Shown: positions 35,272-35,405, counted from the stretch's first letter. The stretch: 37,530 nucleotides of DNA from a virus (IMGVR_UViG_2663763220_000005); one strand, 5' to 3'. A program made the numbers and translations. The notes: generated by a model from the sequence alone, not told the origin.

Positions 35272-35316
35272 CGGTACCAGCTTGTACCCTTGCTTCCGGC
35301 TGGTACCGTCCTTTTT
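35272..35316 (+). terminator. Rho-independent terminator-like hairpin in the early-left leader
   Basis: CGGTACCAGC-N17-GCTGGTACCG (10-bp stem) followed by TCCTTTTT. Confidence 0.55.
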
Positions 35317-35405
35317 ACAAAACAGAGAAGAGCATCACCGGACGACGGGCTCATAACCCAATCCATCCGGGCGGCAGTCACCGCAGGTGTTCTTCTCTGT
35401 TTTGT
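35317..35405. repeat. Long perfect inverted repeat (stem of at least 14 bp) enclosing a GC-rich 59-nt loop
   Basis: CAAAACAGAGAAGA at 35318-35331 pairs exactly with TCTTCTCTGTTTTG at 35391-35404. Confidence 0.6.

Follow-up and report, generated by a model that had tools for sequence, protein, structure and literature searches.

We found that the long untranslated leader upstream of the yfdP-like gene in a viral genome (IMGVR_UViG_2663763220_000005; the whole stretch of 37,530 nucleotides is called the window here) ends in two adjoining RNA modules. The first is a terminator-type hairpin with a U-tract at 35270-35316 (hairpin 1), which on sequence similarity appears to be the 3' end of a divergent member of the STnc100 small RNA family in a new context, the leader of the PL-like promoter. 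The second, at 35317-35405 on the plus strand, is a three-way junction (3WJ), an undescribed and widespread RNA motif with a tRNA-like tip, for which we infer a function. The reading we prefer, in which the 3WJ is a cis-acting leader module that works with a scheme of termination and read-through at the small RNA, has in our judgment about an even chance of being right. A first-pass annotation of the DNA had already proposed a structured non-coding RNA element here, and covariation bears this out; it missed the 3WJ architecture, the likeness to a tRNA anticodon and the relationship to STnc100.

This end of the window is the immunity and early-left region of an SfV/SfIV/ST64B-type lambdoid prophage. 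A cI-like repressor gene (33464-34138, plus strand, Peptidase_S24) is followed by a terminator-like site (34150-34169) and by a PL-like sigma-70 promoter at 34178-34205 on the plus strand (TTGACA, 16-nt spacer, CATAAT; 11 of 12 consensus matches), and the SfV annotation has the same order of cI, terminator, early-left genes, xis and int. From this promoter to the yfdP-like ATG at 35454 is about 1.25 kb, which holds two small genes, phrog_1744 (34373-34579, plus strand) and phrog_5286 (34551-34985, minus strand), both from phage families with no known function. Between the start codon of the minus-strand gene (34985) and the ATG lie 468 bp without a credible gene, longer than the roughly 390 bp given in the first-pass annotation, and hairpin 1 and the 3WJ form the 3' end of this stretch. 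The yfdP-like gene itself runs from the ATG to 35816 on the plus strand (120 aa; phrog_204; RefSeq name yfdP), with a Shine-Dalgarno sequence GAGGAG at 35441-35446 on the same strand. A promoter scan found no consensus promoter in 34800-35454, and thus the RNA of hairpin 1 and the 3WJ must originate further upstream.

The second module had been described as a perfect inverted repeat of at least 14 bp around a GC-rich 59-nt loop. The repeat is indeed perfect over 15 Watson-Crick pairs (arms 35317-35341 and 35381-35405; 20 pairs with G-U counted), but the supposed loop itself folds into two arms, and therefore the element is a three-way junction. It consists of a 20-bp outer stem (35317-35336 with 35386-35405), arm A at 35338-35370 (CCGGA-C-GA-C-GGG-CUCAUAA-CCC-AA-UC-CA-UCCGG) and a short arm B at 35371-35384, all on the plus strand. 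As RNA, 35317-35405 has a predicted dG of -45.5 kcal/mol (z = -8.3), and none of 200 shuffles was equally stable. Our covariance model of the junction, R1, scores it at 105 bits and finds no second copy in the window. The outer stem is 18-20 bp in the copies of the window's kind (class 1 below), so that it has the length, about two turns or at least 20 bp of double-stranded RNA, that RNase III calls for, and a mismatch in the middle of the stem is conserved, pair 9 being unpaired in 31 of 50 sequences. An Rfam search, one of the checks proposed in the first-pass annotation, was rewarding for one module only: it matched 35096-35319 to STnc100 below threshold, while no family of Rfam 15 at E up to 10 matches the 3WJ in the window or its relatives. 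The only overlap with the 3WJ was 14.5-bit 'Hairpin ribozyme' noise on the minus strand. Our search of the literature on ymfH, STnc100 and phage initiator-tRNA mimics or decoys likewise found no description of it.

More than 120 3WJ loci came out of pattern scans of viral contigs, and the 56 distinct versions among them all fold to the same junction, with an arm B of 14 to about 40 nt. We counted covariation twice, in a 21-sequence seed and in 50 distinct matches to model R1, the latter being an alignment of related sequences that was fitted to that model. In the seed 95.8% of cells are paired, compared to 40-48% when the 3' partner is slid, and for the 50 sequences the values are 96.0% and 43-50%, so the folding and covariance analysis across relatives that had been suggested as a check came out in favor of conserved pairing. 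Pairs changed on both sides number 8 in the seed and 11 in the larger alignment (88 cells), and the covariation score is 0.173 versus 0.099 for shuffled alignments in the seed and 0.193 versus 0.100 in the 50 sequences. Not one of 500 shuffles of either alignment matched the observed paired percentage, double-change count or covariation score. Further pair types, on the other hand, showed no excess over the shuffles, 213 of 500 (seed) and 294 of 500 (50 sequences) having reached the observed number.

The alignment also speaks to the strand. One pair is held as U-G in 45 of the 50 sequences and two others are G-U in 13 and 12 of them; since these pairs would be A-C mismatches on the other strand, the 3WJ is an RNA of the plus strand and not a DNA site. 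We conclude from the aligned sequences that its helices are kept as plus-strand RNA structure. This bears on the proposal that the inverted repeats act as DNA, either bound by a recombinase or a host factor, as the first-pass annotation also suggested, or forming a cruciform. In relatives, long inverted repeats do occur no more than about 3 kb from xis-int, and in e14, the defective prophage of K-12, they immediately precede xisE. The pairing that works on one strand only refutes this idea, and the arm sequences vary with pairing kept and the internal arms covary too, so we give it next to no credence.

A second possibility that the same alignments address is that hairpin 1 and the 3WJ are functionless relics, either of phage tRNA genes or of the frame that RefSeq annotates here (ymfH, hypothetical proteins). 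In its favor are the tRNA-like sequence themes of these leaders, the ORFs annotated over the region in many records and the frame that is open from 35136 into yfdP. Decay into a coding remnant had been named as an outcome that would speak against an RNA element. However, the helices are maintained by compensatory changes, which largely refutes the idea, and the arm B indels are not multiples of three (85, 86, 87, 88 and 104-110 nt). A short reading frame that starts just 3' of the 3WJ is not conserved either, and the tip of arm A is near-invariant across genera, with exact 22-nt matches outside Enterobacterales. We consider a relic very improbable. An upstream ORF from a GUG or AUG after the 3WJ was a separate candidate that we rejected, given that peptide, frame and length are unconserved and that the same nucleotides also occur in frameshifted form. 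The frames that overlap the STnc100-like RNA, hairpin 1 and the junction, namely ymfH in K-12 e14 (L152 3576-3887), gp36 in mEp460 (L003 2971-3114) and an open frame at 35136-35816 in the window, very likely do not code for protein, and the annotated ones are very likely spurious. Databases label the 3WJ region as hypothetical proteins (ymfH in K-12), and the RNA identity corrects those annotations.

The most distinctive feature of the 3WJ is the tip of arm A. The segment GGG-CUCAUAA-CCC at 35347-35359 on the plus strand, with CAU at 35352-35354, equals the anticodon stem-loop of tRNA-fMet, and the 14 nt of CGGGCUCAUAACCC (35346-35359) are identical to positions 28-41 of the E. coli tRNA. The tRNA sequence used for this comparison has a 100% match in four copies per E. 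coli genome, annotated as tRNA-Met. Three G-C pairs in the anticodon stem mark initiator tRNAs, and the identity covers all three of them plus the whole CUCAUAA loop, which makes this an initiator-type anticodon stem-loop. We scanned for copies without reference to the tip by fixing only the flanks of arm A. The 118 copies found carry the loops CUCAUAA (102), CUCAUUC (14), CUCAUUA (1) and CUUAUAA (1). CUCAU is thus kept in 117 of 118 copies and variation is confined to loop positions 37-38, with C32-U33-C34-A35-U36 nearly invariant. In the defective e14 of K-12 the stems are kept and the loop is UUAAUAA, the CAU being lost.

The element is not a true tRNA gene, as neither ARAGORN nor Rfam (RF00005) calls a tRNA at the 3WJ in the window or its relatives. 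It differs from the initiator tRNA in having no D arm or T arm and in that position 37 can be U, which real tRNAs disallow. Another parallel is the thrS operator, where a tRNA-anticodon mimic sits in the 5' leader of an mRNA; the 3WJ likewise places a tRNA-like anticodon tip in a 5' leader. It is possible, though we would hold it only tentatively, that the 3WJ mimics the anticodon arm of the initiator tRNA to engage a universal reader of that arm, either for recruiting or holding ribosomes or as a decoy for an anticodon nuclease. If the tip docks at the 30S P site or the initiation machinery at the first early gene, it would amount to an IRES-like or entrapment device native to bacteria, and if the decoy version is true it would protect the initiator tRNA from anticodon nucleases such as VapC. 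Engagement of the ribosome or of such a nuclease would in either case be a new kind of phage-host RNA mimicry. We also looked in the window for trans targets of the tip and found none convincing. There are 17 matches at up to 2 mismatches (8 expected), and none of them coincides with an obvious start site. Pairing of the tip with an AUGAG start region is possible for many yfdP-like genes and for a Planctomycete example described below, and is absent before RdgC-like genes and sb37 of ST64B.

The exact 22-nt tip (GACGGGCUCAUUCCCCAAUCCA) reaches further than the junction, as it caps unrelated helices in GC-rich non-enterobacterial contigs (L158, L190, L195). In the first of these, from a Planctomycetaceae MAG (5591-5685; contig shared with L189), the tip is intergenic and stands 45 nt before a small ORF that starts AUGAGC and precedes a lambda-family portal gene. 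The other two are metagenome contigs of 65% G+C. By our estimate chance would give about two hits for the 22-nt tip in the genome scan and less than one in the metagenome scan, and the matches with flanking helices do not look like chance. Three others (L168, L170, L185), which lack a flanking helix or fall within a plausible ORF, we did take as chance. A universal partner would be expected to leave just this pattern, the same tip in enterobacterial prophages and in GC-rich environmental phage-like contigs.

The distribution of the full junction shows two position rules. It is present in 28 Enterobacterales species at 80-106 bits, and window positions 35050-35460 are matched in 2781 of 5426 complete E. 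coli genomes, 1823 of which cover at least 80%; K-12 e14 ('ymfH') is included. In class 1, the window's kind, the elements keep a set order of hairpin and U-tract, 3WJ, RUGGAGAAAC, a small hairpin whose loop often is UGCAG, Shine-Dalgarno and ATG. In the window the single-stranded segment after the 3WJ is GUGGAGAAAC (35404-35413, plus strand), which is in all class-1 copies, RUGGAGAA being kept 3' of the 3WJ in every class-1 variant. The small hairpin (hairpin 3) is CGACC-UUGCAG-GGUCG at 35418-35433 on the plus strand; its stem varies among relatives, and its loop often has UGCAG. The gene after a class-1 3WJ may be yfdP-like, RdgC-like or yfdR-like and begins 32-59 nt downstream in most variants. 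Because the identity of this gene varies, the block belongs to the operon leader and not to yfdP. The 3WJ is also a separable module, as many phages (mEp460, cdtI and Stx2c phages) share with the window only 35268-35460 (about 96% identity) and have a different upstream part. We note that the loops of arm B (35375-35380) and of the hairpin before the ribosome-binding site (35423-35428) often have the same UUGCAG/UGGCAG motif in related loci. A protein that binds both loops, or a contact between the two, might explain the motif, but arm B of the window (CAGUCA) does not fit. A kissing interaction between arm B and the UGCAG of hairpin 3 was dropped, as it fits the SfV-type arm B (CUGCCA) and not that of the window.

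Class 2 comes from phages and prophages of Klebsiella and Raoultella (L006 2508-2575 and L007 2508-2575; L020, L022, L043, L047, L052, L056, L064, L081, L102, L127 and L177). Here arm A is nearly unchanged (GAUGACGGGCUCAUAAUCCAAUCCAUC), and the outer stem is 6-7 bp. The 3WJ directly follows tRNA-Asn, tRNA-Arg or tRNA-Phe genes and is itself followed by RCCA, like a tRNA 3' end. In phage GZ7 (L006), where we examined the neighbourhood, it is in the late region downstream of the antiterminator Q gene. A terminator comes about 90 nt after the class-2 junction, and in the Klebsiella phages no nearby ORF follows it.

These copies look more like a tRNA-like RNA that stands on its own than like a translational leader, and they are one reason to weigh a different role for the 3WJ, in which it is cut out and works in trans, either as a small RNA or as a decoy of the tRNA anticodon arm. 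It could, for example, titrate a factor that reads this arm of the initiator tRNA, such as a VapC-type anticodon nuclease or MetRS. The position in the leader would then be a mere means of early expression. The class-2 copies in tRNA gene arrays, with RCCA after a 6-7-bp acceptor-like stem, would suit such a role, as would the identical 22-nt tip in GC-rich environmental phage-like contigs, which points to a partner that is conserved universally. Variation in the loop is limited to positions 37-38, and these adjoin the known VapC cut site; Shigella and Salmonella, which are hosts here, carry VapBC. However, the class-1 copies have no CCA end, their distance to the ribosome-binding site is fixed and the block co-varies with GGAGAAAC and hairpin 3. 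Our literature search also found no paper linking phages, decoys and initiator tRNA. We regard the trans role as doubtful for these reasons, although a modest chance should be left to it.

Turning to the first module, the first-pass annotation had placed a terminator-like hairpin with a U-tract at 35272-35316, and a stable hairpin of this kind is present there. Its arms, 35272-35281 and 35299-35308, are fully complementary, the stem can be extended to G35270-C35310 and the U-tract is 35312-35316 (U5). As RNA it has a predicted dG of -18.8 kcal/mol (z = -4.9), with none of 200 shuffles equally stable, so that it has the G+C-rich stem and immediate U-tract of an intrinsic terminator. The claim that the terminator is strong is right only in part, since the loop of 15-17 nt is unusually large for an efficient terminator. 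It was missed by a simple terminator scan because that scan allows the loops of 3-8 nt typical of efficient terminators. Given the long loop, termination at hairpin 1 is probably partial. The arrangement is nearly constant among relatives. Of 78 distinct upstream sequences taken from phage and genome contigs, 76 place a stable hairpin (dG -7 to -24) and a T-run of at least 5 right against the 3WJ, no more than a few bases from where the junction begins. The stems vary (GGCGGUACCAG, GGCGGCAUC and GCCCAUCAC are examples), and the GGCGG...CCGCC at their base is conserved.

Hairpin 1 is the intrinsic-terminator-type 3' module of a longer sRNA-like domain at 35096-35319 on the plus strand, which in a permissive Rfam scan matches RF02076 (STnc100, a PasD-related family) over the full length of the model (1-206 of 206; 43.4 bits, E 4.7e-8), with hairpin 1 aligned to the terminator. 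The match falls short of the STnc100 gathering score of 47 bits, and no match anywhere in the window reaches its gathering score. In the predicted fold the domain has a 5' hairpin, a multi-helix core, a single-stranded linker at 35250-35271 and the terminator, and the core is closed by a stem of GUUGUGGUG (35126-35134) with CACCACAAC (35241-35249). Alignment and fold thus agree with the STnc100 architecture of closing stem, CCGGG-AGGCA-CCCGG hairpin, linker and terminator hairpin with a U-tail. The suggestion of a small RNA gene therefore holds for part of the element only, hairpin 1 being its terminator.

STnc100 is a prophage sRNA recently tied to PasD (bioRxiv 10.64898/2026.05.13.724894), and its canonical copies belong to the late region; one of them lies 75 nt downstream of stx2B (PMC12370729). 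The likeness to STnc100/PasD is a full-length alignment that includes the closing stem, the GGUGAAU motif, the CACCGGGAGGCACCCGGCACCA hairpin, the linker and the terminator, and both are prophage-borne. The difference is in the context, the window copy being in the PL leader upstream of yfdP and the canonical copies beside Q, stx, esterase and holin genes (PMC12370729; bioRxiv 10.64898/2026.05.13.724894). The interior helices also differ among relatives, and mEp460 keeps only the ends. The family would gain an early-operon member. In related leaders (L084 1800-1925 and L101) a tRNA-like gene, Rfam-positive in L084 (40 bits against the Rfam tRNA model, with a large insertion), lies at the position of the STnc100-like core, exactly so in L084. 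The common GUGGUG/CACCAC closing stem and same hairpin placement in this gene and the window's core (35126-35249) suggest that the STnc100/PasD family may be tRNA-derived.

DicF (RF00039), an sRNA in the dicB early operon of prophage Qin, is a second comparison, since here too an sRNA lies within the early-operon leader of a prophage. By alignment the base of its 3' hairpin, UUGGCGGUA(U/C)CAG...CCGCC-U5, is similar. The window match, however, scores only 19.4 bits (cut-off 48), its seed is a different one and the window RNA is much larger. The similar part is the linker and 5' half of hairpin 1 (35250-35282, UGUGUGUAGUCUUGGCGGUACCAGCUU), which resembles the 3' half of DicF (Rfam 19 bits).

If the 3WJ is to be made, transcripts must pass hairpin 1, and the proposal that the element is itself an RNA-based antiterminator is unlikely, as it lies at and after the terminator and so cannot act in cis on it. 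A separate conserved RNA is better placed for this. It lies at 34217-34287 on the plus strand, where a closing stem encloses two hairpins, and is a candidate antitermination element by its PL-proximal position only. Our model of it, R2, scores 97 bits there. This RNA of about 70 nt is found behind at least 10 different promoter/operator types in relatives, among phages of Escherichia, Shigella, Salmonella, Yersinia, Pectobacterium and Pantoea. Four of its 15 predicted pairs show compensatory changes, and a hairpin and the closing stem covary. A second R2 match at 30335-30397 (15 bits) is inside a minus-strand ORF and was taken as chance. RNA-based antitermination, if there is any, more likely resides in 34217-34287 than in the 3WJ.

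HK022 putL is the known system closest in layout to this RNA alone, as it also begins a few nt after the PL start, is about 70 nt long and has two hairpins, and HK022 put and 34217-34287 share the short strings CGAAC(A)GG and GGAUGA. We rejected homology, since model R2 finds neither putL nor putR with filters off and E up to 10, and the shared 7-8-mers are a lead only. The window's RNA also differs from put in having a closing stem that put lacks and in being a single copy with no putR counterpart. Further along, 34316-34328 (GCUCUUUAACAAU) follows a hairpin and matches the rrn boxA consensus over 13 nt. The hairpin AAGCGCCCUACAGGACGCUU followed by this boxA-like GCUCUUUAACAAU (34295-34328) gives the hairpin-then-boxA order of rrn leaders, and on the minus strand this hairpin reads as a terminator.

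It could still be argued that the 3WJ is a transcription-level element which binds RNA polymerase and alters pausing or termination further downstream. It does occur in the leaders of long operons that need to escape termination, both early-left and late, and it is nascent and very stable. The difficulties are that it comes after the abutting terminator and so cannot suppress that terminator, that there is no put similarity (model R1 finds nothing in HK022) and that 34217-34287 is a better-placed candidate. The likeness of the tip to a component of translation would also be left unexplained. We consider this role improbable.

The cis-acting leader reading that we prefer would run as follows. 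Transcripts from PL that are left unmodified would end at hairpin 1, giving an STnc100-type sRNA with its start near 35096, and modified or lucky polymerases would read through, depending on the RNA at 34217-34287, with possible assistance from the boxA-like sequence (about 34316-34327). The 3WJ would be made only on read-through transcripts, where it would be the 5' domain of the mRNA of the first early-left gene, followed by GGAGAAAC, the small hairpin, the ribosome-binding site and the ATG. The 20-bp outer stem may serve as a processing and protection element, RNase III cutting within the stem or, alternatively, RNase E cutting in the U-tract or the A-rich joint before the 3WJ. Such a cut would free the mRNA of the sRNA ahead of it, and the junction would then cap the mRNA 5' end. 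The idea of a processing element, which the first-pass annotation had listed, is thus still a live one for this stem. The RNase III hairpins of the lambda N leader and of T7 R1.1 offer a precedent in that a stem of about 20 bp lies between a promoter-proximal control RNA and the first early gene, although the conserved branched interior of the 3WJ has no counterpart there. Arm A would finally show an initiator-type anticodon loop to a host translation-initiation factor and so set the expression of the first gene; candidate partners of the tip are the 30S P site with IF3, MetRS and an anticodon nuclease.

Several observations count against the cis-leader reading. The STnc100 score is below threshold and canonical STnc100 is in the late region of Stx phages (PMC12370729). 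The loop of hairpin 1 is large, e14 has no CAU loop and no relationship between the PL-proximal RNA and HK022 put is detectable. What the finding offers all the same is a new, strongly covarying RNA motif with a copy of the initiator-tRNA anticodon loop at the point where lambdoid early-left expression is switched on, and a handle on early-left control in the N-less SfV/ST64B-type lambdoid phages.

Two further features of related phages are worth recording. The leaders of the relatives are arrays of tRNA-like pieces. In four of them (L011, L017, L084 and L116) a repeated leader unit, absent from the window, lies 300-500 nt upstream of the junctions. It has a long outer stem, ACAACGAYGAGRGCAUUG...CAGUGCUCUCUUCGUUGUGG, with a pair of perfect T-arm-like hairpins inside, CUGG-UUCGAUU-CCAG and GUCCG-UUCGAUU-CGGAC. 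In ST64B (L002 409-597) and mEp460 (L003 324-512) the minus strand has matches above gathering score to the C4 antisense RNA and IsrK, about 1 kb beyond cro, which fits an antirepressor control module of the P1/P7 type.
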